A model generated the notes under the pieces. It did no database searches. It saw only the letters and a program-made list of their open reading frames with translations, and was not told where the DNA came from. A DNA stretch of 64,000 nucleotides from Nitrospirota bacterium. GTDB taxonomy: Bacteria > Nitrospirota > UBA9217. The stretch lies in NCBI GenBank assembly GCA_963754875.1, contig CAVWHO010000016.1:64001-128000 (forward strand). Reading direction: 5' to 3'. Made by a program: the position numbers and the translations under genes. Positions 15,319 through 52,297 of the stretch are shown here, piece after piece. How positions within the stretch are numbered: position 1 is the stretch's first letter; each line of letters begins with the position of its first letter.

Positions 15319-17252
15319 TCAATAGACGCCGATCACTTTTCCCATCTCCGAAATATCATAGCCCCCCATGGCCACGATCTGGTCCCGGAATGCTTTGTCC
15401 TCACGAATGATGGCCAAGAGCGCCTGCATCATGGGCATGTCATAGAACTCCTGTCGTGATTGCCAGATCATACCGCTCCTGCGCCACAGGGATGAAATCC
15501 AGCTGGAGCGCCTGGGCTGCAGAGAGTACGGCAAGCCCCGTATCCGCTGCCCCGGAGAGCACGGCGGCAGCCACGGCCATGTGCGTAAATTCCTCGTGAT
15601 CATACCCTTTTACATTCTTTGGGTCAATCTTTAATCGTTTCAAGTACAGGTCCGTCAGAAGCCGCGTGCCTGCGCCGGCCTGGCGGTTCACAAAGACCAC
15701 GTCCTCGCGCACAAGGTCTTCGAATCCTTTGATGCCCTTCGGATTGCCTTGGGGAACAATGAAGCCCTGGGTCCGGTACACGAGGTTAATGAGCACGGTT
15801 TTTTGGTCCAGGAAGCATTTTTTTGATATAGCTTACGTTATATTCCCCCGTCTCCTCGTCAAGAAGATGGGTCCCGGCGAGATGGGCCTCCCGGCGCTTC
15901 AGCGCCAACAGCCCGCCCATGCTGCCCACATGGGCCGAGGAGAACGAAAACTCGGGATGTTTTTTCTTGAGGAAGTTCGCAAGCACGTCGAGCACATTGT
16001 CGTGAGAGCCGATACAGACGATCGTGTTCTCGATATCGTGGGAAGAACGAAGCAGTTCGACCGTTACCTCGTGGTTCGATGCAATACCCTCGCTCGAGGC
16101 CGGTACGCGGATGATGCCGTCAGCGCGTACGAGCGACATGAGTGCCCCGGCCCCCCGGGTCACTGGCGTGGCGATCAGGTTCCCTGCGACGCTGCCGAGC
16201 TTGACGCGGATGAATTCCTCCTGCCCCAGCGATGACGCCACCTGGCGGCTCAGCTTTGCCGTAATCGTTCCCGGGTTAGGAGGCATAGTGCCGAGGAGGG
16301 CGTAGATGAGCGGCTTGACGAAGAGATTGAACGTGAGCGCTGCCGAGACCGGATATCCGGGGATGCCGACGACCGGTTTCCCATTCACGATGCCCAGAAT
16401 GACCGGCTTCCCGGGTTTGATCGCGACACCGTGCACAACGACCTTGCCAAGGTCGGCGATCACATCGGAGGTAAAATCCTCTCTCCCGGCTGACGAGCCG
16501 GCGTTGATCACCACGATATCCGAGTCAGCGAGTGCAGCAAGAATCGTCTTGCGCAGGAGAGCGGCATCGTCCTTGACGATGTTCTTGCGAATCGCATGGG
16601 CGCCACACTCGCTCGCCATCGCGGACAGCATGGTTGAATTGAAATCGATGATATCGCCCTTTTTGGGTAGGCTCCCCGGATCGACCAGCTCCGTTCCCGT
16701 AGGGATGATCGAGACAACGGGCCGCGGTCGCAACATGACTGAGGTATGCCCGCTCGCGATCATGGCGGCCATGTCCACAGGACGGACCACGTGGTTCTCG
16801 GAGATGATGAGCTCCGTTGCAACGATGTCCTCGCCCACGAGCCGCACATGCTGCCACGGAGTGGACGGCTTCAAAATTTCGATCTCGGAGTCGGAAACTT
16901 TTTCCACGTCCTCGATCATGATCACGGCGTTAAACTCATCGGGCAGGGGATCGCCGGTGTCGATGGCAACGGCCTGGGTCGGTACTGTGAGGCGTTTGGG
17001 TCTTGTTTCTGCGGCGCCGAAGGTGTCGATGAACCGGACGGCGTAACCGTCCATAGCAGCGGAATGGTAAAAGGGCGACGAGATTTTCGCGATCACGGCC
17101 TCGGACGTGACCCGGCCGAGCGCATCGCCTACTTGTATGCGTTCTCCTCCAAGCGATCCGCCAAGAACGGCGGTTTTGAGCGCTTCTTGATATTTCCGGA
17201 TTGCATCGGCAAGCGGCTCGTTATCGAGATATTTTTTTTGCTTGAATGCCAT
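15319..17252 (-). CDS. moeA: MoeA fused to a C-terminal periplasmic-binding-fold (PBP) domain; reading frame broken twice (about 15808 and 15458)
   Basis: SAAMDGYAV, PTGTEL, GSSAGREDF, IKPGKP, IGSHD, VNRQAGAGTR and ERYDL. Removing one base at each site restores LPDQKTVLINL and YDLAIRQEFY. Confidence 0.85.
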
Positions 17253-17381
17253 ATTGAGTGACCTGTCTGTTTCGCGGGGGTTATCCCGCCATCCCACGGT
17301 GCGTGATCAGCACAACCTCCGACTGGCGAGGCGAGGTTTTTTTGTTTCGACCTGTCACGGTGCCTCTGTGGCGAACATCCT

Positions 17382-26129: not shown

Positions 26130-26816
26130 TTATAGGTTATTTTTCAAATTGTCATAAGCTTTTTTTGCAACTTCCCTTACTTCCAAATCCTCAAATCCAT
26201 CATTTCTATATACCCAAACCACGGCTCCATCCTGCTTCAGATTCTCAACCTGGCAGATTATTTTTTTAAAATCCTGAGGGCTAAACCGTTCTTTTAACAG
26301 AGGTACAATTTCAAGAGCATAAATTCTGGCAAGCGGATCTTCCTCAGCAAGTCCGCGCAAAACCACGCTCTTGAACGGCACGATCGACTCGGGACGGGCC
26401 TCGGAGATCTTTTTCAGTGCATAGAGAACTCCGGGTCTGAAGACGCGTTCGTCAATTGCGAATATTTCGGCAATTAAGGGGATAACATCCGACATTTTTA
26501 CCGGATCAGCGCTGACAATTTCTCCCAGAATCTCAGGAGCTGACCATCCAATACCGCCGGATTCATCTGACAGGGACCATAACAGCTTCCGGATGGCATC
26601 TCGGAGGAAATCATAGTTGTTCTTTACGAACAGCGACGAAACGTGACCGATTGCCTTGATTGCCCGCCAGCCGACGAGCGTGGTCTTGTCATAGGAAAGC
26701 CGGACCAGAACGCTAAACACCTTCCTGCTCTGCAAGGCCAACGTTGTGACGGTTTCGTAATCATTTGCTTCCAGAGCATGCACAAGCGTCTGCTTCATTT
26801 CCAGCTGGGTTAACAT
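26130..26816 (-). CDS. HEAT-repeat protein (DVU0298-like)
   Basis: LLWSLSDESGGIGWSAPEILGEI motif. Confidence 0.75.
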   Translation of the reverse strand: MLTQLEMKQTLVHALEANDYETVTTLALQSRKVFSVLVRLSYDKTTLVGWRAIKAIGHVSSLFVKNNYDFLRDAIRKLLWSLSDESGGIGWSAPEILGEIVSADPVKMSDVIPLIAEIFAIDERVFRPGVLYALKKISEARPESIVPFKSVVLRGLAEEDPLARIYALEIVPLLKERFSPQDFKKIICQVENLKQDGAVVWVYRNDGFEDLEVREVAKKAYDNLKNNL

Positions 26817-26830
26817 CGTTCACCTGCAAT

Positions 26831-27337
26831 CTACACACGGACCTCTTTGAAGGTAATCAACTCCGACAGTGTCATGGCCAGCCATGCCATGACCTGGACC
26901 GCGATGGGCAGGACCAGGCTGGAGAAAACTGCCATGGCGGCCCGGTTCTTCGAGGTCTTCTGTTCCTGCAGAACAGGCCCCTTGGCCGTTGTCAAGGCAT
27001 AATTCAGCAGGATGGCGAGGGGCAGATAGGCAAGGACCCGAAAATAGAATTTCGTCTGGAGAATGACTAAAATCGCAACGAGGAGGACCACCTCAATGAA
27101 GGTGATAAGAGCTGTTCTTTTCATTGAAAGCTGCCATATTTTTTTAGAAAGGAAATATTTAACAACCAGCGTCAGGCCTACGCCGATCACAAACATTGTC
27201 GAGACGAATACGAATGTGCAGAAACATCCCACTTCCACGGCGCTTGCGGACGACGGATATGCCAAGAGTCCCGCAATAAGGACTGCAGTGCAAAAAAAGG
27301 AATTTAACCCCGCCTTGAGCCTCCCCTGAACATCCAT
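26831..27337 (-). CDS. Hypothetical membrane protein
   Basis: GGGAGG RBS; 4-5 hydrophobic segments. Confidence 0.65.
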   Translation of the reverse strand: MDVQGRLKAGLNSFFCTAVLIAGLLAYPSSASAVEVGCFCTFVFVSTMFVIGVGLTLVVKYFLSKKIWQLSMKRTALITFIEVVLLVAILVILQTKFYFRVLAYLPLAILLNYALTTAKGPVLQEQKTSKNRAAMAVFSSLVLPIAVQVMAWLAMTLSELITFKEVRV

Positions 27338-27936: not shown

Positions 27937-28218
27937 GGAGACCTCCTGTTTGCAGTAACGGGAAACGACGCCTGCCCGCACGAAATCACGATCCTCGGGC
28001 GATTTTCTGCTCCCCTGATTTTCAGGGTACCGGCATTACGAGTATGCCGGTAACGAGAGCTTCTGTCAAGTCTTCATGAAGCTCACTTCGCCAATTGCAC
28101 GATCTAAACATGGTCAGAGGAGAAGGTTTCTGGTATACTTTTTCTTAGTAACTCTTTTCCTCCACAAACTTCAGACTTCACGCCTCTTCACATCGATTTT
28201 CTTGTATAAGGAGCGTCC

Positions 28219-31200
28219 ATGAACCATTATCGATTCGATGTCGCTATTATCGGGGCCGGACCTGCCGGAGTAGCTGCTGCAGGATCGCTCGCCGGCTCCG
28301 GTATAACCGTGGCTCTGGTTGAAGCTGGTGTGTACGCCGGGGCCGAAAACTGGTCCGGCTGCGTTTACTTCACGGAAAACCTCGCTGAAAAGGATTGTTT
28401 CGGCGCCGAAGCAATAGAGGCGGCCCCTTTTGAACGGCGTATTGCGCGCCGGGGCACTCTTATGCACAACGGGATCGACGTCATCGGCATCGAACTTACG
28501 AGTCTGGAGGCATTCAAGAACTGCTATACCGTTCTCCGCCCTGTCTTCGATCCCTATTTTGCTCATCTTGCCCGGGAGAAGGGCGCGGTCCACATCACCG
28601 GCACGACGGTGACCTCACTCATCAGGAAAGAAGGAAGGGTCGTCGGCGTCATGACGGATCGCGGTCCGCTTTATGCCGGCGTCGTTTTCCTGGCAGAGGG
28701 CGATGCTTCTCACCTTGTCCGGTCGGAGCAACTCGAGAACACCGCGCAGCCGCACTTTCTTCAGGGAGTGAAAGCCGTACTTTCGCTCGCGTCGGAGGAG
28801 ATCGAAAAACGGTTCAAACTCGATCCGGGCAAAGGCGCGGCCTACGAACTGCTCCTTCGGAACCCTTCCCTCTCCGGCAGGACCGCAAAACTGAACGTCG
28901 GCGGTTTCCTGTACACAAACCGGGACAGCCTTTCGATGGGCTACGTTGTCCCCCTCGACAATCTGCGGGACTATTACCGTGGCAGCCACGACATGCTCTT
29001 TGAATGGATGCGAGGCCTTCCGTATCTCCGGGAACTGACCGAGGGCGCGGCGCTATCGGCTTACGGCACGAAGATCATCAGAAGCGGTGGATGGCGCGAA
29101 CGGCCCGTGCTCGTTCAAAACGGCCTTGCAGTCGGTGGAGCATCAACGGGCCTCGGCGTGGACATTCCCTTCCCGAACTTCACCGGCCCTGCATCCGCAA
29201 CAGGACTCTATTTCGCGCGGGCAGTCAAAAATATTTTCAAACGAGGGGGCGCCTTTGATGCCAAAACACTGAGCCGGGAATATCTTGAGCCGCTCCTCGA
29301 AAGCGTACATGGGGAAAACTCCCGCTATCTTTCCGCGTGGCCGGGCTATTTCGGGAAATCGAACGTCCTCTTCAGCAGGACCGTGGACATGGCCTGCGGC
29401 AGCGTTCACTTCTTGTCAAAGAAAGATATTGTCGAAACAGGGCGGTTTCTCAGAAACCATGTCCTTTCCGTTCGGGGGATCAAGGAATCAATCGTTGACA
29501 CGATGCATGCAATCAGCGCGCTCAGGCTCTGGAGGCCCCTGGCAAAAACAGTGATCAATCCCCTGACGATCGGTCGCTGGTTCGCCAATCTTTTTAAAAG
29601 AGCGCCCGCCCCGGACCGGAAACTCGGCTTCATCATACAGATTGCCGGAAAAGAAAGGAACGCTGCGTCGCTGCCCTGGCCTACGGGCTCGCTTGTCAGA
29701 CGGCTCTCTCCTGCACTTGTCCTTGCGCTCGAACAGATCTATGCAAATGACAACCGGCCTGCAGAGAAAAAGTTTTCTCACGCTGTCCGGAGTCTTCTGC
29801 AGGGACTCAAGCTGACTGATTTCATAATCCTTCCCGCCTTTGGCTTCGTTCTCGTTTTCTTTGCGCTCGGAACTGCGCTCTGGGATGCCTTTCGTTTCTA
29901 TTTGCTCAAGACGCCTGTGGACAAGCTCCTTGCGGAACCGGTCATGGCGTACAATGAATCCCTAAGGAAAGCGCGTGATCTCGACGCAGTGAAACCCCGG
30001 CAGAGCCTGGAGGCGAAACTGGCGACGAACACCTACCATGTCGGGGACGCGTCGCACATCAGGACGCTCTGGCCCGAGGCTATCCCCGCCCATCCGGACA
30101 TGTCTCAGGCAGCGCTCTGGTGGCTATGCCCTGCGCGGGTCTACGTGTACGACGCTCCACTCGCAGGCCGCGGCAAGGTCACGGTAAACTTCGAGAACTG
30201 TATCAAGTGCGAATCCTGCTGGAGGGCGGAACCTCAACGCGTGCTCTGGGGGCGCCACACAGATCACAAGCTTATTTACCGGCCCGACAGCGCAGCGATA
30301 CCGGTTCTCCTGCATGCTCTTCGGGAAAATCTCCCTTCAAGAAAAGGGACGCATCCGGCGATTGCCCCCCTGGACGAAAAGCTCTGGTACCTGAACGAAG
30401 ACGTGCTGCAGCTTGGACAGGAGGCGTTCAATGCATCATCGGCTTTCATTGATGCCGTTGCAAAGCTGCCCGCTTCGTCCGACCGAGGCAGAAATGCCTG
30501 GCCGCTTTCGCTCGGGAAAAGACTGTCCGAAAAACTCTTGAAGCTCGAAGCCGCTTTCACGAACGACGGCAGATACGCGCAGGCTGAAATTATTCAGGTC
30601 GAAAGGAAAGACATCGAGCTCAAGCTTACGGAAGGAAGACTTCTCCATGCGCTCTATTGCTGCCGCAGGTTTGAGCAGGGCATTCTGTCGTGGGTGCGTG
30701 AGGATGATGGTTATACGATTCCCGCATCAACAGTGAAAAAATATGACCGCACCCTCTCTTACGAAGAAGTCTCCCGCATCTTCCCTGACCGGATCGTAAA
30801 ACAGTGGGAGGAAGAATTCATGCCCGATGCATGGGCAGAAACACTGCGGCAATTCATCCTCGAGCAGCGCGATAAACCGCTTGAGGCAATACGGGCGCTC
30901 TCCTCAGTGAACCCGGCCCTCGGACTGATTGCAGCGCACCAGCTTCTTGCCAATGAACTGCTCACGAAATCGAGTATCGAGCCTGGCCCGGGCATCTGCG
31001 CCGCAGCCGCCGACCATCTCGATATCGAAGAGGAGGGCAGCGGCAGCGTCCGCATAAAAGGCCCCCTGTCACTCGTCCCTATTGCGGCGAGCCGCACCCT
31101 GCTGCTCACGTCCGGTGGGAAAGGATACATTATCCCCCTTGCCGACGCGGGTGTTACGATCTCACACACGCCGACGATCGGGTTCAGGGCTGCGGGATTT

Positions 31201-34200
31201 GCCGATGTTTCGCTTGACGTGACCGTAACAACGTACGCTGTGCTATCGGCCGAAAGAACAGACATCCCTGAAGCTGCTTCCTACCTCGCCATCGCACTTG
31301 GAGCCGGCGACTACCTCTGCAAGAGGATAAAAGAACACGCTGCAGGAAGAGTTCAATTCCCGGGCCAGATGCTCGACACCGAGGGCAGGGATGGTATTGC
31401 GAAGCTCGGCGCAGTCAAGGCCATGATCGCCAGAACTGAAGCGTGGCGGCTCCTGCTTGAGAACCTTTACGACGTTTATGCCAAACCGGAAAGCCGAAAT
31501 CCGCAAACCGAAATGAATTTCTCCCTCATCTGCACTTCGCTCGCTGCCATGTCTTTCAGCCCGGAGCCGGGCGCCATGGGATACGATGCGGGCCAGGTCT
31601 TCGGCGGATTCGCGTACTCCGAAGACGACCTGCTCTCGCGGTTCTACCGGGACAGCGCTCTCTTCCGGTTCCTGGCGCCGGGATACGGCGCATCGACTAA
31701 GCTGCATGCCGCTCTCGTCTCCCTCAGTGATGACATCGTGTTTTCCGGCTTTGGCGACCTCGGAAAAATTCAAAATGCACCGCTCAGGGACTTCGTGCAC
31801 GGCCTTTCGGACGTTGAGAACAAATGCCGTACCCTGCCCGAAAAAGCAGATCCGGGTCTCACGGGTGAAGCGCAAGCCGTCATCATCGGCATTCGCAGGC
31901 TTCTCATCAGCATTGAAAACGGACTGAACCAGGGCAGGAGCACGGAACGAGAAGCTGCTGCCGCAGAAGTGCTCCTTGGTCTGGCGGAAGACGCGCTTCA
32001 GAAGGCCCGTCTCTCAACAGGACGCGGCCGCGTATCGCCCTTTGCTCTGTTCCCGGTGGAGCCCGGAGGTACGCCCGCCACGCTCGACAGGGACTATGAA
32101 TCCTTCTGCAGAGCGCCCGGCGCTCCGCATATATCGGGTAGCTTCCTCCTGTCTGCATTCGACCGGGCATTGCGTTTTGTCCCTGAAGTGCAGCTCCATG
32201 ACGCCCGCCTCCGAAACCGCTGGACCGAACTCACTGATTGGTTCAAACAGAACTGCCGCGACAAGAAATTCGAGGGACTTTTTATCGAACGGTATATCGA
32301 GAAAATCCACGGCCTTCCTGACGAGGTCATCGATGCCGTCAAGAACAATAAGTGGCTCGCCACGTACGTTCCGAAATCCGAGGACGGGCTCGGATGGCGC
32401 AAGGCTGAATATTACATCCTGAATTCCGCGGCAGGGAGCTTCGGTGACGCAGGCATCGATCTCCTCATCATGGCAAGCACGAGCATCGGCACAACACCCA
32501 TTCTCCTGGGACTCGAGGACGAGCTGCCGCGCGTGCGCCAGGAACTGGCGCCCCTGGCACAGGATGCAGGCATTCTGGGCGAGATCAACACAAAGCTTTC
32601 CAGGATCATCGGGATGTTCTCGAACCCCAACCCGTCCCTGATCAGGAAAGAATACGAAGCGCTGATAAAACTCGTGGACGTCCGGGTCCGCCGCACCCGA
32701 GTGGTCAAGTATCTGGCCGCAAATTTCCTGCGCGCTTTTTACAGCGCAGGCATTGCAGGCAGGCGCGGCGATTTCAGCGGGTTCACTGCAAACCTCAAAC
32801 ACGCAGGCGGCCTTTTCGAAAACATCATGCCCGATGTCCGTGCCGCCCTGGAAGAACTTCCTCGGCGCGAGCGATGCCATAAACTTTTCCTCCGTTATCT
32901 TGGCCACGGCGGCGTGAGCGCCTTTGCTCTTACTGAACCGACCGCGGGCTCGGACTCCGGCGGTGTCAAGACCACGGCGAAGTTAGAGACGATAAAACTC
33001 CTTCCCCGTGATGACGGAAGGTATGCTTTCCAGCTTGACGGGCAGAACGACAAAAGCGAGCGCTATTTGATCGACGCAGACAAGATTGCCTTTACCGATC
33101 GGGGTATCTCATATCAGACGCCGGACGGGCAGTCTGCGTTAATTCAATATGACCGCTATGATTATGCAACTGACCAGGGGACGAGATACTACCTGTACCA
33201 GGGGAACGTCTGCGAGTTCCATGACATCGGCCAGGTGCGAAAGACCAATGCCGGGCTTACGTATGAGTATTACAGCCTGACCGGTGCGAAGATGTGGATC
33301 ACGAACGGAAGCATCGCGACCCAATTTTCCCTTTTTGCCCAGACAAACGAAGGCGTCACAGGTTTCATGGTGGACCGGCACAGCGAAGGACTCAAGGTCG
33401 GGGCGGACGAAGAAAAAATGGGGCAGCGAGGCTCGCCTACGAACGAAATCTCGATCGACGCTGTGCGCGTTCCGCGCGAGGCCGTGATCGGCTACGAAGG
33501 CCACGGCCAGGTGAATGCCCTCGAAACGCTGAACGTCGGGCGCTGCGGTCTTTCCGTCGTGTCCGGCGCGCTCAGTCGCAAGCTGTTGGAAGAAGCACGC
33601 CGAAATATTCCCTCAACGCCGGAGCGGGACCGATTGCTCGGCGAAGCTGCAGCGATCATGTTCGGCAGCGAGTCCCTTGCCTACTACCTCGTAGGCCTAT
33701 TCGACCGGCCTCACGAGTCGGTCCGCATGGAGTCAGCAATTGCAAAATATGTCTGCTCCGACGATATCCATGAACTCATCTCGCTCGTCGAGTATGCCTA
33801 CGGCCCCTCCGGCCAGACGGAAAAGTTCCTGCTCGAAAAAGCGCGGCGCGATGCGCGCATCCTGACCATCTACGAAGGAACGAATGAAGTGCAGCGATTT
33901 TTGATCCTGAAGGACCTGATCGCCATGGCCCCAGCCTGGTCCGAGATACCCGTGCCGCAGGATGATCCCGCATCACGAACGCTTGCAGAATGGAAGAACA
34001 AGCTGAGAAACCAGGTGAAGGAAGCGGCCCGCTTGCTCGGCGATGCGTCGTGGTCCGACGCGATGCTCCAGCCCGCACTTTTCCCAATTGCCGATACGGC
34101 GGGTGAGGTCCTGCGGCTTGACTGCATATACTACCGCATGGAGTGGCTCGAACAGCAAAGAGCGGTCCTCGAACAGGGAGATCGGGACTACGTGCTCGAT

Positions 34201-36138
34201 CTCCTTGATGCCGGCAATCGCGCTGCAGAAAGGTCCCTCGCGCGGCTTGCTTATCTCGACAAAAAGTACTCCTCTGCCCTGGCGCTCCTCCGGGAAAACA
34301 ACACTATGCCCGAGGTACGCGCTGCGGATGCCGCCCTTGATGCTTTTGCGGAACACGAAAGGGTGGCTGGCCCTTCTCCCGGCAGCGTGCGGGCCCAACT
34401 GAACTGCCTCGTCATTGTCCGGCCCGTTGCCGAACTTTCTCCGCGCCCGAGGATCGCGGACAACGCGCTTCAGGAGATCCTGTGGCAACTTGATCCATGC
34501 GATCTTTCCGGTCTGGTCCAAATGCGGGAACTCAAACAAGCAAGCGATTCCAGCCTGACCATCGACGTGCTCATGCCCGGCGGCCCCGAGTTTGATCATC
34601 TTTTGAGAACAGCGGCAGGCGCCCGCGCAGACAACCTCCTTCGCCTTGCTGTCGATCCTGCGGCAGGTCCGGGATCTTACGTGAAGGCCGTGAAAGACCT
34701 CGAAGTGCTGAGACCATACGATCTCATCGTGATTGGTGCAGACTGCCTCGATGGCGACCGGAGTCTCGGCGCCTATTTGGCAGGATGTTTCAAGAAGAAC
34801 CTTTACCGCAGAGACCGAATCGAAGCCAAACCGGACGGGACCGGCTTGACCCGTGTCGTACTGCCGGCAGTGATCAGCATGACCTCGCCAGTGAAGGACA
34901 AGGGCTGCGACATGAAATCGGCCGTAGCCGCCGCCTTTTCGATTATACGGGTAATCGGGCCTTCGATGAATGAGCCATCGACCGAGCCCGGTCGTTACGA
35001 ACGAGTATCCGGGAAAGAAACCATTGCGCAGACTGTGACGGACACGGCTTCGGCAGCGGTCTATCTCAAGGAGTTTGCAGCTTCAGCGAGTGCTGCAGCT
35101 GCCGGAGAGTATGCCGGTCCGGTAAAGAAGGGAACGTTTGCGCAGGACAGTGCGGTCTGGGCTTTGCTCGGACCTCATGAGCAGAAATCCAACATCGCGG
35201 TGCTCCGTGCTGCACGGCTTGCTGCCGACCTTACTGGCAGGAAGGCGCGTGCCGTCATCCCCGCACCGAGAGGAATGTGGCCAGCTCTCCTCGGGCTTGC
35301 AAAAGCCCAGGGGTGTGAGCAGGCATTCTGTGTGGACACGCAGGACAATAGGTTGTCGAGTGAGGGAAAGCGAAAAATCGTCCGCGTTGTCCAAAAGACA
35401 GCGGACGAGACATTTCTCTGTGCAGGGCCGGAATGGACAGGCGCATTCGCCTACGCCGGCGGCGAGTCCGACAACCCCAAGTCGCCTGTCCTTCTCTGCT
35501 CCGGAGTTACGGGAATTGAAAAAGGAGGGACCGGCTCTCTCGCCTTTGCGCTTCAGTCCTATGAAGGTAAACTCGTCCGGCGTTTAGTGCAGAAACGCGG
35601 TTCTTCTTTCATCACCACTGTCCCTGAAGCAGATTTCCCTGTTGCTCCGGAAGCGTTGACGTTCGACGCCGCAGTCCTCGACTTTGCAATTGACCCCGAA
35701 TTACTCATGCCTTTGCCGCCCGTAGCAGCCCCAACGCTCTCGCAGGCGGACGTTATCATCGATCTCGGTTACGGTATCAAGGATAAGGCGGGGCGTGAAC
35801 TGGCGGAAAAACTCAGGACAAAACTCGAGGCACTGGGACTCGCACCGATGTTCGGCGCAACGCGCAAGGTGACGCAGGACTTGAAGCTCCTGCCGCTGGA
35901 CGCCCAGATCGGCCAGACGGGCATCCGCGTCAACCCGAAGCTCATCATTGCGCTCGGCATCTCGGGCGCGCCGCAGCATATCGACTACGTCGGCACACGC
36001 GCGGAGATTCTCTGCTTCAATAAAGACCCCGAGGCTCCGCTCATGAAGCTGAACCAGACGAGGCCTTCACCGCGCGTTCATCCCATCGTGGGTGATCTTT
36101 TCGTGACGGTGCGGGAGATCATCGCCAGGCTTTCGTAA
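28219..36138 (+). CDS. 2639-aa fusion: FixC/ETF-QO flavoprotein, FixX ferredoxin, ACAD, ACAD, EtfB, EtfA
   Basis: GAGPAG and GAENWSG (FixC); CPA...CIKCESC (FixX); RVQFPG and QVFGGFAY (ACAD 1); AFALTEPTAGSD, KMWITNG, KMGQRGS and IYEGTNEVQR (ACAD 2); LVIVRPV..LDPCD..DLIVIG (EtfB); QIGQTG and GISGAPQH..NKDPEAP (EtfA). TAAGGAG RBS. Confidence 0.9.
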   Translation: MNHYRFDVAIIGAGPAGVAAAGSLAGSGITVALVEAGVYAGAENWSGCVYFTENLAEKDCFGAEAIEAAPFERRIARRGTLMHNGIDVIGIELTSLEAFKNCYTVLRPVFDPYFAHLAREKGAVHITGTTVTSLIRKEGRVVGVMTDRGPLYAGVVFLAEGDASHLVRSEQLENTAQPHFLQGVKAVLSLASEEIEKRFKLDPGKGAAYELLLRNPSLSGRTAKLNVGGFLYTNRDSLSMGYVVPLDNLRDYYRGSHDMLFEWMRGLPYLRELTEGAALSAYGTKIIRSGGWRERPVLVQNGLAVGGASTGLGVDIPFPNFTGPASATGLYFARAVKNIFKRGGAFDAKTLSREYLEPLLESVHGENSRYLSAWPGYFGKSNVLFSRTVDMACGSVHFLSKKDIVETGRFLRNHVLSVRGIKESIVDTMHAISALRLWRPLAKTVINPLTIGRWFANLFKRAPAPDRKLGFIIQIAGKERNAASLPWPTGSLVRRLSPALVLALEQIYANDNRPAEKKFSHAVRSLLQGLKLTDFIILPAFGFVLVFFALGTALWDAFRFYLLKTPVDKLLAEPVMAYNESLRKARDLDAVKPRQSLEAKLATNTYHVGDASHIRTLWPEAIPAHPDMSQAALWWLCPARVYVYDAPLAGRGKVTVNFENCIKCESCWRAEPQRVLWGRHTDHKLIYRPDSAAIPVLLHALRENLPSRKGTHPAIAPLDEKLWYLNEDVLQLGQEAFNASSAFIDAVAKLPASSDRGRNAWPLSLGKRLSEKLLKLEAAFTNDGRYAQAEIIQVERKDIELKLTEGRLLHALYCCRRFEQGILSWVREDDGYTIPASTVKKYDRTLSYEEVSRIFPDRIVKQWEEEFMPDAWAETLRQFILEQRDKPLEAIRALSSVNPALGLIAAHQLLANELLTKSSIEPGPGICAAAADHLDIEEEGSGSVRIKGPLSLVPIAASRTLLLTSGGKGYIIPLADAGVTISHTPTIGFRAAGFADVSLDVTVTTYAVLSAERTDIPEAASYLAIALGAGDYLCKRIKEHAAGRVQFPGQMLDTEGRDGIAKLGAVKAMIARTEAWRLLLENLYDVYAKPESRNPQTEMNFSLICTSLAAMSFSPEPGAMGYDAGQVFGGFAYSEDDLLSRFYRDSALFRFLAPGYGASTKLHAALVSLSDDIVFSGFGDLGKIQNAPLRDFVHGLSDVENKCRTLPEKADPGLTGEAQAVIIGIRRLLISIENGLNQGRSTEREAAAAEVLLGLAEDALQKARLSTGRGRVSPFALFPVEPGGTPATLDRDYESFCRAPGAPHISGSFLLSAFDRALRFVPEVQLHDARLRNRWTELTDWFKQNCRDKKFEGLFIERYIEKIHGLPDEVIDAVKNNKWLATYVPKSEDGLGWRKAEYYILNSAAGSFGDAGIDLLIMASTSIGTTPILLGLEDELPRVRQELAPLAQDAGILGEINTKLSRIIGMFSNPNPSLIRKEYEALIKLVDVRVRRTRVVKYLAANFLRAFYSAGIAGRRGDFSGFTANLKHAGGLFENIMPDVRAALEELPRRERCHKLFLRYLGHGGVSAFALTEPTAGSDSGGVKTTAKLETIKLLPRDDGRYAFQLDGQNDKSERYLIDADKIAFTDRGISYQTPDGQSALIQYDRYDYATDQGTRYYLYQGNVCEFHDIGQVRKTNAGLTYEYYSLTGAKMWITNGSIATQFSLFAQTNEGVTGFMVDRHSEGLKVGADEEKMGQRGSPTNEISIDAVRVPREAVIGYEGHGQVNALETLNVGRCGLSVVSGALSRKLLEEARRNIPSTPERDRLLGEAAAIMFGSESLAYYLVGLFDRPHESVRMESAIAKYVCSDDIHELISLVEYAYGPSGQTEKFLLEKARRDARILTIYEGTNEVQRFLILKDLIAMAPAWSEIPVPQDDPASRTLAEWKNKLRNQVKEAARLLGDASWSDAMLQPALFPIADTAGEVLRLDCIYYRMEWLEQQRAVLEQGDRDYVLDLLDAGNRAAERSLARLAYLDKKYSSALALLRENNTMPEVRAADAALDAFAEHERVAGPSPGSVRAQLNCLVIVRPVAELSPRPRIADNALQEILWQLDPCDLSGLVQMRELKQASDSSLTIDVLMPGGPEFDHLLRTAAGARADNLLRLAVDPAAGPGSYVKAVKDLEVLRPYDLIVIGADCLDGDRSLGAYLAGCFKKNLYRRDRIEAKPDGTGLTRVVLPAVISMTSPVKDKGCDMKSAVAAAFSIIRVIGPSMNEPSTEPGRYERVSGKETIAQTVTDTASAAVYLKEFAASASAAAAGEYAGPVKKGTFAQDSAVWALLGPHEQKSNIAVLRAARLAADLTGRKARAVIPAPRGMWPALLGLAKAQGCEQAFCVDTQDNRLSSEGKRKIVRVVQKTADETFLCAGPEWTGAFAYAGGESDNPKSPVLLCSGVTGIEKGGTGSLAFALQSYEGKLVRRLVQKRGSSFITTVPEADFPVAPEALTFDAAVLDFAIDPELLMPLPPVAAPTLSQADVIIDLGYGIKDKAGRELAEKLRTKLEALGLAPMFGATRKVTQDLKLLPLDAQIGQTGIRVNPKLIIALGISGAPQHIDYVGTRAEILCFNKDPEAPLMKLNQTRPSPRVHPIVGDLFVTVREIIARLS

Positions 36139-48134: not shown

Positions 48135-50964
48135 TCACTGTCGCGGCAGCGTGATGGAAAAGGTCGTTCCCCTCCCCAATTCGGTCGTAACGCGGATATC
48201 GCCATGATGGTCAACAAGTATTTTTTTTGTAATCGCAAGTCCGAGGCCGGTCCCCCCGTTGGCAGCTTTCGTCGTATAGAAGGGGTCAAAGATCCTATTG
48301 ATCTGCTCCGGCAATATGCCGCCTCCCGTATCGCTGATCCTGATGTTGACCGCCTCCTCCTCAGCAACCGTCTCGATGGCCAAGGCGCCTTTGTCGTCCA
48401 TGGCGTCGAGGCCGTTTGTAATCACCGTGAGAAAGACCTGCCTCAGTTCCCCTTCGTTCCCATAGACGGTAAGGTTCCCTTGTGTATAGCCTCTCACCAC
48501 CTCGACTTCTTTTAATCTGCCTTGAAGGCTGATGACCTCCAGTGTCCTGTCGATCATCTCATGGACATCGATCGTCTTTTTGTCCGGCGAGCCTTTCCGT
48601 ACGAACGAAAGCATGCCTGTGGTTATATTTTTGCACCGCGCAATCTCTTCTTCGATGATCTCCAGATATTTCTTGAACAGCGCCGGCTCAAAGTGTCCCT
48701 GGTTAACCCGGTTCAAGAGACCTTCCGCACATCCCCTGATCGCGGCCAACGGGTTGTTGATCTCATGGGCGATGCTCGCCGCCATCTGTCCGAGAGATGC
48801 CAACCGCTCGTTCATGATGAACCGCATCTCTCGTTCCCGTTCCTGCGTCACGTCTCTTACGATATTGATGGTCCCGCCGGGGGCCCCATCGGGGTTCAGG
48901 TAAGGAAAGTGCGTGGTCACCAACGTTCTTTTATTTATCGGGTCCACCTGTTGGACATCAGCCGCGATGCCTGTTTCCTGTATCCTATGGTGCGGACAAT
49001 CAGTATAGGGATCACGTGATTCGTGGACCAGTTCGTAGCATTTCTGATTGAGAATTGACGAAAAGCTCTTCCCAACATACGCAGCAAAGGCCTTGTTCGC
49101 CTTGATAATCCTGTATTCCCTGTCGGTGATGCAGATGGGGTCCTGGATATTATCGAAAGTATCACTCCATTCTTTCTCGGAACGGCTGACCTGAGCGACC
49201 AGATACTGAAGCTCCATGACGAACTTCTCCCGTTCCATCTCCATCCGCTTTCGCTGTGAAATATCGACCACCGCGATCCGGATCTGACCTGCCTTATCGT
49301 CGACATTATCGGCGATCGTACTCTGGAGTTGGGCGTAAAATGCCGGGGCATTTCTCGGTACTATCCTCAACTCGCAGGTCTGTAATGCTTGGCTCCTGAA
49401 TGTTTCCTTACGATGGCCTTCGTAAACTGCAAGATCGCCCTTTTCGATAAAAGGGGTAAAAGATTCCCCTATCAACAGATGCCTGGTTACGCCCACCATA
49501 TTGGCCCCGGTAAGATTCGCTTCCCGGATCCGACCGCTTGCATCAATCAAGAAATACCCGAACCGGAGAGAAATCAAAGAGGTCCCTATATCTGGCGCGG
49601 GAGGATTCAAGCTCCACCCGCGCGCGGTGCAACGTTTTTTCCGCCTGTTTGCGCTCAGAGATATCGCGTACGATCGCCACCATGTATCGCTTCCCCCCCT
49701 CGGCAACAGGCATGACGTTGATTTCAACGGGGAAGACACTGCCGTCTTTTCGCCGATGCAAACTCTCGATCATAAACGATCGACGCTTGAGGACGTCTTC
49801 GCACCTTTGTTTCCATGAGTGATCGTCCGGAATATTTAGGTCGAAGTCCCTTACCGACAAAGACAGCACTTCCGGGCGGGTGTAACCATACCTCTCGCAG
49901 ACTTTCTCGTTGCAGTCCGAAAAACGGCCGGTTTCGTGATCAGTTACGAATATGCAATCGTTTGACCGGTCGATAAGCGCGCGAAACAGCCTCAGGTCCT
50001 TCTCAGCCTGCTTCCGGCTGGTAATGTCCCTCGCTACTTCAACAGCCGCGACGACCTCCCCCGACACATCGCGCACCGGAGATGCAATAAGTTCGTACGT
50101 TACTTCGCCCCGTTGTTCGATCAGGCCAGTTCGCTCCACGATATGGCGCTTCCCATCCTGGAAGGACAGCACAAGGGGGCAATCTTCACAGACAGCGTCC
50201 TTCTTCCGGTACGCCTTGTAGCAATACTCGCCGACATGGTCTCCGCCGACAAGTTCCCTGTGGAGCCGATTCTGATAAATGACCCTGAAATCCCTGCCCT
50301 GCATGCTGACGCCATCGGCTATAGCCACTATGATAGCCTCGGACTTGTTTTTTTCTTCTACGGTTTTTGCCAGCGCCCGACGCAACGTTTCTTCCGCCTG
50401 TTTGCGCTCGGAGATGTCCACAACGGCAATTCGGATCAGACCGTTCGCCTTGCCATCCTGTTCGACAGCCAAGCAGTGCAACTGAGCAAAAAACGGGGAA
50501 CCGCTCTTTCTTTTGAGTTTAACTTCGCAAGGTTGCTGGTACTTCTTCTCGATGACTTCGGCAAAATGAGAGAGGAACACCCGCTGTTCTTTCCTGTCCG
50601 CGAGAAAAACGGAGAAGGGTCCGTTGATCACTTGCAGCCGGTTGACGCCGAGCAGGGTCGCACAGGCGAGGTTAATTTCCTTGATCGCGCCGCGGGCATC
50701 GAGCGCAAGATAGCCGACAGGCGCAAAATCGTACAAATCGGCCAACTTGTCGCGGGACGATTCCAGTGCCTCCCTCGTACGTCTGAGCTCTTCGTTCTGC
50801 ATTTCGAGCTCGATCTGGTGAGTTCCGAGCTCATTGACGAGCTGTTTTAAATCATAGGTCGTGAGCTTGCTCAAGCCTTTCGTCTGTTCACCGAGCTTTT
50901 TCTTCGCCTTCCGTCGAAGGGCGGCGAGGGTTTCCGATTTTGAACTGGATTTTTTCGTAGGCAT
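48135..50964 (-). CDS. Cytoplasmic multi-PAS histidine kinase, split by one frameshift near 49561
   Basis: HQIELEMQNEEL, several PAS domains, AHEINNPL and GTGLGL. Removing one T restores DFSPVGYFLID, matching the earlier DFAPVGYLALD. Confidence 0.85.
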
Positions 50965-50980
50965 TCTTCTCACCGAATCC

Positions 50981-52297
50981 TCATTCTTCCACCCCGTAGC
51001 TTGCCAGCTTCCGGTACAAGGTCTTCGGGTCAATGCCGAGCAGTTCCGCCGCCTTGCCCCGCTGTCCTGCCGATGCGTCGAGGACGCGCAGGATGTGCTC
51101 CCTCTCGACGTCTTCGAGCCGCGTGGAGGCTGCCTTCGGGCCCGTGACAAGATCGAGAGGGAGGTCGTAGGGTTCAATCACATCGCTGCGCGACAGGAGG
51201 AGCGTCCGGTGCACGACGTTCTGCAGTTCCCGCACGTTTCCGGGCCACGGGTATGCTGTGAGGACGCGGAGCGCCGACTCGCTGAACCGCTTTTGCTTGA
51301 AAGCGGCGTCACGCTTCGTAAAGTAATCGATCAACGCCCGGATGTCCTCCTTGCGCTCCCGCAAGGGCGCAATCGGCACGGTGAGCGCCGTGACCCGGTA
51401 ATACAGGTCTTGCCTGAAGGCCCCTTTCCGGATTTCTTCCTTAAGGTCCTTGTTCGAAGCAGCAAGTATCCTGATGTCCACCTTCTGCTCACGGGTGCCG
51501 CCGAGCCTGAAGAAACTCCCAGTTTCAATGACCCGGAGCAGCTTTATCTGGAGCGCAAGGGGCATGTCACCGATCTCATCGAGGAAGAGCGTCCCGCTGT
51601 TCGCGACTTCCAGGAGTCCGGGTTTTCGTGCTGAAGCGCCGGTAAATGCACCTTTTTCAAAACCGAACAATTCGCTCTCGATCATGTTCTCGGGAATCGC
51701 CCCGCAGTTGATCGGGACAAAGGGACCGCCGGCGCGCTTCGACTCCCGGTGGATGCTCGCTGCAATCAGTTCTTTGCCCACGCCGCTCTCGCCGGTAATG
51801 AGCACGGGGAAATCGGATTGAGCGACCTTTTTCGCGGTCTCCTGCAATTCCTGCATTACGCGACTCGCGGCAATAAGGTGTTTCCGTTCCGTCTGCCGCT
51901 GAATTTGCGTTTTTAAAAGAATATTCTCGCTGCGGAGCTTCTTTTTTTCGTAGGCTTTATCGATGATCGGTCCAAGTTCTTCCAGGCGGAATGGCTTCGA
52001 CAGGTAATCATAGGCCCCGAGTTTCATGGCCTCGACGGCAGTCGATATGGTTGCGTTCGCTGTCAGCACGATCACTTCGGTGGGAATATCGAGAGACTTT
52101 ATTTTTTTTAGGACATCGATGCCCACGAGTCCGGGCATGTTCAGATCGAGAAGGAGAACATCATATTCGTCCTGATCGAGCAGTTCCAGAGCCCGCCGTC
52201 CGTTTTCCACCTCATCTACATGAGTGTGATCGTTCGAAAGCTCCGTACGCAACACCTGCCTGATGTTCTTTTCATCGTCGGCAACGAGCAGTTTCAT
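50981..52297 (-). CDS. NtrC-family sigma54-dependent response regulator
   Basis: REC domain, GESGVGKE, ESELFG, GAFTGA, WPGNVREL and a C-terminal HTH. Confidence 0.95.
   Translation of the reverse strand: MKLLVADDEKNIRQVLRTELSNDHTHVDEVENGRRALELLDQDEYDVLLLDLNMPGLVGIDVLKKIKSLDIPTEVIVLTANATISTAVEAMKLGAYDYLSKPFRLEELGPIIDKAYEKKKLRSENILLKTQIQRQTERKHLIAASRVMQELQETAKKVAQSDFPVLITGESGVGKELIAASIHRESKRAGGPFVPINCGAIPENMIESELFGFEKGAFTGASARKPGLLEVANSGTLFLDEIGDMPLALQIKLLRVIETGSFFRLGGTREQKVDIRILAASNKDLKEEIRKGAFRQDLYYRVTALTVPIAPLRERKEDIRALIDYFTKRDAAFKQKRFSESALRVLTAYPWPGNVRELQNVVHRTLLLSRSDVIEPYDLPLDLVTGPKAASTRLEDVEREHILRVLDASAGQRGKAAELLGIDPKTLYRKLASYGVEE

Follow-up and report, generated by a model that had tools for sequence, protein, structure and literature searches.

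Can a single polypeptide carry electrons all the way from acyl-CoA to quinone, when the ACAD, ETF and quinone-reductase components usually come as four or five separate proteins, and if so, which pathway does it serve? This question is raised by one gene in a 64,000-nucleotide stretch of Nitrospirota DNA (here called the window; source genome, G000). The original prediction had described an uninterrupted frame of 2639 residues without flanking beta-oxidation genes, and we found the same: positions 28219 to 36138 of the plus strand form a single ORF of 2,639 aa (289 kDa) with no internal stop, and no beta-oxidation or lipid gene adjoins it in the window. The gene lies among dnaJ/clpB, a pair of hypothetical genes, an Lcl gene, and aspS. 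The GC content is even over the fused modules (0.53 to 0.63), and the gene is apparently monocistronic. On the same strand, a ribosome-binding site, AAGGAG, lies at 28208 to 28213 and a predicted extended −10 promoter-like site, TGGTATACT, at 28131 to 28139; of 54 non-redundant upstream regions, 40 have an extended −10-like pattern within the 150 nt upstream of the gene, and none has it on the reverse strand. A palindromic operator shared by the fusion gene and fadD was looked for, and none was found. The hypothetical pair, of 228 and 168 aa, lies between dnaJ and the fusion (window 26130 to 27337, minus strand), recurs at 8 to 9 loci, and gave no convincing Pfam match. Elsewhere in the window, a MoeA-PBP fusion with a shortened PBP domain (15786 to 17297) and overlapping PAS and histidine-kinase ORFs (48135 to 51177) look frameshifted.

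An assembly artefact was considered as the source of this ORF and rejected, since long homologs are widespread and contigs of related strains span the junctions. Among 7,992 scored, the homolog search yielded 449 long proteins with an E value of at most 1e-20. Long homologs are 30 to 84% identical and come from several phyla, with source labels of Nitrospirota, Nitrospiria, Leptospirillia, Acidobacteriota, Armatimonadota, Planctomycetota, and Acidiferrobacter; Gemmatimonadota, Lentisphaeraceae, and two candidate phyla are represented in addition by N-terminal pieces. All taxon-labelled carriers that state their type are MAGs, no cultured carrier appears among the labelled homolog records, and the databases name the fusion homologs after a single domain. 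The original prediction had called for a look at conservation and at the junctions. The module order FixC, FixX, ACAD-A, ACAD-B, EtfA proved to be kept in 136 of 144 proteins of at least 2,200 aa, with EtfB also matched in 128 of those 136; among the remaining eight, seven lack the N terminus and one lacks EtfA domain II. Contigs from four public runs in three studies, representing related strains and not the source genome's own reads, cross the junctions membrane segment/FixX/linker, linker/ACAD-A/ACAD-B, ACAD-B/EtfB, and EtfB/EtfA without any net frameshift. No regular split form was seen: the interrupted relatives (G034, G057, G010, G026, and G035) break at differing places, and 79 shorter homologs, several of them labelled partial, end at scattered lengths. 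One record titled Betaproteobacteria (L027/L003) has the ORF coordinates and identity of a locus assigned to the window's genus (G009), and its label is probably wrong. Motif counts given below out of 106 refer to the listed full-length homologs, that is, those of at least 2,540 aa, which make up 106 of the best 120 of the 449 matches.

The chain begins with a FixC/YdiS-type FAD quinone-reductase domain (aa 1 to 435; 28219 to 29523, plus strand, as for all modules below). In a search with a profile of aa 1 to 692, T. maritima FixC (7koe_C) was matched over aa 3 to 435 at an E value of 7e-46 and ETF-QO (2gmh) at 7.5e-15. The best NCBIfam match of the N terminus, PRK10015, which we take to be YdiS, reached 145 bits (cut-off, 466) and PRK10157 reached 130 bits (cut-off, 610); these scores, both below the curated FixC/YdiS cut-offs, mark the domain as a divergent subfamily. 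Behind it lies a family-specific helical segment (29524 to 30003) with a predicted membrane helix at aa 536 to 554 (window 29824 to 29880; mean KD, 2.43), where hydropathy is at least 1.6 in 104 of the 106 homologs as well as in 19 of 27 distant representatives. The FixX-like segment that follows (30004 to 30294) carries C637, C661, C664, and C667, all present in 106/106, with CxxCxxC in 30/30 distant representatives. These cysteines align to the Fe-S segment of ETF-QO (2gmh), and Fer4_ETF_QO of Pfam matched here at an E value of 0.009, so that a FAD domain homologous to FixC/ETF-QO and a four-Cys Fe-S segment reside in the same chain. As in ETF-QO, four cysteines are one cluster's worth, and a single [4Fe-4S] is predicted. 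EtfX carries two clusters, according to the accessible part of PMC10734219; with only four conserved cysteines, the fusion has no two-cluster FixX. A poorly conserved linker and helical spacer (aa 693 to 849; 30295 to 30765), whose identity to homologs is 0.42, 0.21, and 0.13 by clade, separates this module from the ACADs, and Pfam found no match in aa 715 to 834.

Two ACAD folds come next, of which only the second is predicted to be catalytic. ACAD-A (30766 to 32118), comprising the non-catalytic fold and a C-terminal extension, is weakly detectable at aa ∼850 to 1165 (Pfam E value, 0.007; 2dvl, 0.001). No YEG motif was found in it, and its partner-FAD motifs are kept, with R1044/Q1046/F1047 and G1125/Q1126/F1128/G1129/G1130 in 106/106. 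ACAD-B (32119 to 34353) is a FadE/VLCAD-like dehydrogenase with the predicted catalytic residue E1886, two inserts, and a C-terminal extension, which is itself FadE/VLCAD-like and into which the 2z1q match extends. Its Pfam matches over aa ∼1301 to 1903 are clear (E values of 4e-17 and 5e-16) and split by the inserts, the middle and C-terminal domains scoring above the cut-off and the N-terminal one, at an E value of 0.006, below it. ACAD-B has KMWITN, and F1569-L-T, GSD, and Y1885-E1886-G1887 are present in 106/106; in distant representatives, RxQF and FxLTEP were found in 30/30, strict GQxFGG in 23/30, and strict YEG in 25/30. The inserts, one helical and ∼130 aa long (32506 to 32898) and the other ∼90 aa long (32986 to 33258), are both conserved and matched no known family in Pfam and Atlas searches (the insert match scored below 0.9); Atlas searches with the fusion returned only ACAD clusters.

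In ACADs, a subunit's RxQF- and QxxGGxG-type motifs complete its partner's FAD site. ACAD-B has no such motifs of its own and therefore not the motif set of a homo-oligomer, its RxQF segment being deleted and QxxGGxG lost or changed; a control ACAD of the source genome (G000:C20) has both. Because the motif losses of ACAD-A and ACAD-B are complementary, the two folds likely form one composite active site, as described for CasC. The two ACAD domains of the original prediction thus stand as folds but not as two catalytic centers, only one catalytic glutamate (E1886, in ACAD-B) being present.

The chain ends in a fused ETF, whose EtfB (domain III; aa ∼2058 to 2250; 34390 to 34968) is degenerate. 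Profiles matched 4kpu_B (E value, 2e-16) and 1efv_B (5e-12), and Pfam gave no match in the EtfB region of the 2,639-aa fusion. EtfA (35116 to 36135; 6fah_A, 3.5e-25) consists of a divergent domain I and a conserved FAD-binding domain II (35716 to 36135), which has the features of a canonical ET-FAD site, with R2549 in 106/106 and the QIGQTG and SGAPQH columns kept in 105 to 106 of 106. Among the same homologs, DGDTxQ and the canonical zipper pattern of EtfB were each found in 0/106, the RPxFGG motif of EtfA in 2/106, and an Arg in the Bf/AMP-site column in 5/106 (the fusion from the window has Leu there); the RxGV bifurcation motif is missing from the fused ETF as well. A stand-alone control ETF at G000:C20 has DGDTAQ, RDGV, and RPAFGG. 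The part of PMC8958531 available to us states that 447 of 449 canonical ETFs keep the Arg of the AMP site; the fused ETF lacks the canonical combination of this Arg and a DDDxNQ-like zipper. Electron bifurcation by the fused ETF was considered and rejected on the counts for DGDTxQ and RPxFGG and the presence of four cysteines only. With one Cys set, no DGDTAQ/RxGV/RPxFGG, and the ACADs fused in, we infer that the fused ETF is non-bifurcating, and its scaffold is probably nucleotide-free, AMP itself presumably having been lost. The original prediction had read the chain as a FixC/ETF-QO domain, a hydrophobic helix, a four-Cys FixX-like segment, EtfB from about aa 2060, and EtfA with its FAD motifs, and profiles, hydropathy, conservation, and motif counts agree with each of these assignments.

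The presence of these modules in one conserved chain also supports the proposal, made at the outset, of a membrane-tethered acyl-CoA:quinone oxidoreductase carrying the whole electron chain. In the mechanism that the sequence suggests to us, ACAD-A and ACAD-B would fold into a pseudo-dimer with one FAD, and E1886 would desaturate fatty acyl-CoA. The tethered EtfA domain II would then take single electrons and swing to the [4Fe-4S], electrons flowing from fatty acyl-CoA to the ACAD FAD, the ET-FAD, the [4Fe-4S], the FixC FAD, and finally quinone. The FixC FAD would reduce this quinone, likely menaquinone in the source genome, and enoyl-CoA would pass on to FadJ and FadI. Each chain is predicted to hold three FAD and one [4Fe-4S], and the covalent links likely stand in for AMP and the recognition-loop contacts that hold free ETFs together.

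The chain might be less self-contained than this, with electrons crossing between copies in an oligomer or with the fused ETF and FixCX also serving other dehydrogenases, as the ETF:quinone hub of the cell. EtfABCX dimerises through EtfC (PMC10734219, accessible part), and no second FixC-type protein was found in the source genome, the best other match having an E value of 3e-8. However, the EtfB surfaces of the fusion are degenerate, and the two other ETFs of the source genome have their own arrangements, one a FadF-like Fe-S membrane protein as partner and the other bifurcation signatures. We therefore see very little probability in such sharing of electrons and retain the self-contained chain.

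The source genome has two MqnA/D-family matches, two UbiB matches below the cut-off, and no match to UbiG. Searches of f5, one of the two families of the phylum that carry the fusion, gave no MqnA/D or UbiG in two genomes and no UbiB in four (G040, G049, G057, and G065; 98 to 99% complete). The acyl-CoA couple lies at about −10 mV. Menaquinone, for which the accessible part of PMC10734219 gives −74 mV, would be a marginal acceptor, the step being nearly reversible with it; acyl-CoA-driven electron flow via ETF in a menaquinone respiratory chain has a precedent in the available text of PMC13083937. In vivo the enzyme could run the other way, reducing enoyl-CoA with menaquinol to provide an electron sink or to serve reverse beta-oxidation, comparable to carnitine reduction by FixABCX of E. 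coli. A quinone module that is FixC/YdiS-like and not ETF-QO-like, a genome with the menaquinone pathway and without UbiG, and the need for FixAB in anaerobic carnitine reduction (PMC9329746, in the part available) would all suit such a role. Yet the fusion and an ordinary fadE-fadF-etfAB cluster alternate, and no termination or acceptor-supplying genes lie near the fusion loci, so that we consider reversal unlikely and acyl-CoA oxidation the working direction.

The neighborhood was rejected as a pointer to the substrate, since the genes that recur at the fusion loci of relatives (aspS, dnaJ/clpB, proB, and pgi) are unrelated housekeeping genes. The original prediction had left the substrate open; genome-wide co-occurrence of the fusion with a fadD-fadI-fadJ operon that has no ACAD points to fatty acyl-CoA as the likely one. 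In the source genome this operon, with FadJ/FadI-like genes, is located remote from the fusion (G000:C13:29001-34559). Beta-oxidation family searches covered 63 chosen genomes and revealed two locus types, type 1 consisting of fadD-fadI-fadJ and type 2 having its own fadE, fadF-like gene, and etfAB. No ACAD or ETF was found at any of 18 type 1 FadJ loci (15 in fusion genomes, 3 in others; at most 20 kb, some cut by contig ends); at six f5 FadJ loci, fadD is not adjacent.

The tallies of fusion, FadJ, and FadE were treated as one sample of 301 genomes of the phylum. The fusion occurs in 46 of them and in two families only (f1, 38 of 63 plus the source genome; f5, 7 of 7). Type 1 FadJ is present in 42 of these 46, the four without it being 74 to 89% complete, and stand-alone FadE was found in 16 genomes, only two of which (G000 and G111) are among the 46. 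All seven f5 genomes have FadJ and thiolase, and in the five checked (96 to 99% complete) every ACAD and ETF-alpha match lay inside the fusion. In the control family f9, which has a distant FadJ and no fusion, an ordinary ACAD lies ∼2.5 kb from fadJ in all five genomes checked of seven. Within f1 the Fisher p value is about 1e-5, although the genomes are kin in two families and such values overstate the case; a mirror-tree r of 0.98 over 13 genomes is explained by descent.

Nine of the 51 FadJ-positive f1/f5 genomes, all from f1, had no ACAD-A match. In four of the nine, pieces of the fusion lie at contig ends (G005, G013, G032, and G236); four have stand-alone FadE (G018 and G023, as well as G001 and G019, which also have fusion remnants), and one, G011 (96% complete), has neither. 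The remnants comprise aa 1 to 495 beside aa 2424 to 2638 in one genome (G019:C2:133903-136191) and aa 1 to 65 only in the other (L137, G001:C2:371288-371473). Their presence in genomes with a stand-alone FadE cluster suggests decay after replacement, and stand-alone FadE largely replaces the fusion elsewhere.

In five f1 genomes checked, one further ACAD of ∼390 aa was found; that of the source genome sits in a fab operon beside a bifurcating ETF. This ACAD/ETF pair likely serves another role, because G025 has such a pair yet no hydratase, dehydrogenase, or thiolase match. At the source genome's locus (L114:8360-15620, G000:C20), a plsX-fabH...fabD-fabG operon encloses an ACAD together with EtfB and an EtfA fused to ferredoxin, all bifurcation signatures being present; in fatty-acid synthesis this set may act as an enoyl reductase that depends on ETF, and many relatives have comparable ACAD and ETF pairs. 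A second beta-oxidation cluster of the source genome (L115:5469-19998, G000:C11) consists of ligase, FadN-like, thiolase, fadE, OYE-family reductase, fadF-like, and etfBA genes. Away from the fusion the source assembly is broken, with this fadE as well as fabH and fabF in pieces, and assembly errors are likely.

The fusion could instead be a dehydrogenase dedicated to a special acyl substrate (short, branched, or carrier-bound) that the inserts select, its co-occurrence with fadIJ reflecting shared ancestry. M1418, present in 106/106, aligns with a residue that is small in ACAD9/VLCAD and there opens the cavity for long chains, and an invariant Met at this cavity position would fit poorly with a sole long-chain dehydrogenase. 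The two conserved inserts without known family and the housekeeping neighbors likewise favor a special substrate. On the other hand, none of the five f5 genomes checked has another ACAD to serve FadIJ, and the fusion is nearly mutually exclusive with stand-alone FadE, leaving remnants where FadE is present (G001 and G019). A dedicated role is quite improbable on this evidence, and the fusion is probably an acyl-CoA:quinone oxidoreductase, anchored in the membrane, that carries out the first beta-oxidation step for the remote fadD-fadI-fadJ operon. More tentatively, and with some doubt, it may be a covalently locked ternary complex of ACAD, ETF, and quinone reductase in which the nucleotide-free ETF swings in cis, the inserts docking FadIJ into a membrane metabolon. 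That the fusion keeps electrons off a shared ETF pool, as had been suggested, may hold in the source genome with its two other ETFs but fails as a general reason, since the five f5 genomes checked all lack another ETF.

No account of the fusion was found in the accessible portions of PMC12042025, PMC8958531, PMC3578206, PMC6037941, PMC2702500, and PMC11212195. As the original prediction had supposed, a characterised whole-chain protein was not met with in the literature searched, and neither was any description of the fusion; most subscription journals and supplements lie outside that coverage, and a mention in a table of a genome paper is possible. The novelty lies in the architecture and the pathway assignment, the chemistry probably being ordinary. 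The alternation of ETF between dehydrogenase and quinone reductase is hard to capture, as the complexes are transient. A natural tethered version makes it directly testable by cryo-EM and spectroscopy, and if the locked ternary complex were true, both ETF hand-offs could be imaged in one particle and a one-gene FadE/ETF/ETF-QO module would be at hand. The fusion also shows an ETF apparently managing without a second nucleotide, would account for a first beta-oxidation step that is unannotated in many uncultured Nitrospirota, and might serve as a one-gene building block for engineering this pathway or for reversing it.

The fusion resembles the classical chain of ACAD, EtfAB, and ETF-QO (1efv/1t9g/2a1t, 2gmh) in its module set, predicted electron flow, ET-FAD motifs, and four-Cys set but differs in being one polypeptide with a FixC-type quinone domain, an added hydrophobic helix, and an ETF without the nucleotide-site Arg. 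FixC of the FixABCX/EtfABCX complexes (T. maritima, 7koe) is its best structural relative, and FixX-like and EtfAB modules are shared, whereas the fusion has one Cys set instead of two clusters, no DGDTAQ/RxGV/RPxFGG, and ACADs fused in. CasC of Rhodococcus jostii contains two fused ACADs: just the C-terminal one has the catalytic Glu, and the N-terminal one is needed for FAD (PMC8399759, accessible part). Like CasC and the alpha2beta2 steroid ACADs, the fusion has an N-terminal ACAD fold that lacks the catalytic Glu and keeps the FAD-contact motifs; in contrast to CasC, its ACAD-B is FadE/VLCAD-like with two large inserts, and steroid side-chain genes were found neither among its neighbors nor, as steroid ACADs, among its best PDB matches. 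The tandem ACAD likely arose independently of CasC. SaETF, too, has EtfB followed by EtfA in one chain but bifurcates and stands alone, its partners being encoded by neighboring genes (PMC12042025, in the part available). In the proposed anaerobic beta-oxidation system of E. coli, in which YdiO and YdiQRST act with FadIJ/FadK, the five components are the same as those of the fusion but are encoded by separate genes. The accessible text of the review PMC10318755 cites ydiO/ydiQRST as such a complex, and that of another review, PMC9329746, notes that experimental evidence for YdiQR is lacking. The partner operon of the fusion is FadJ/FadI-like.
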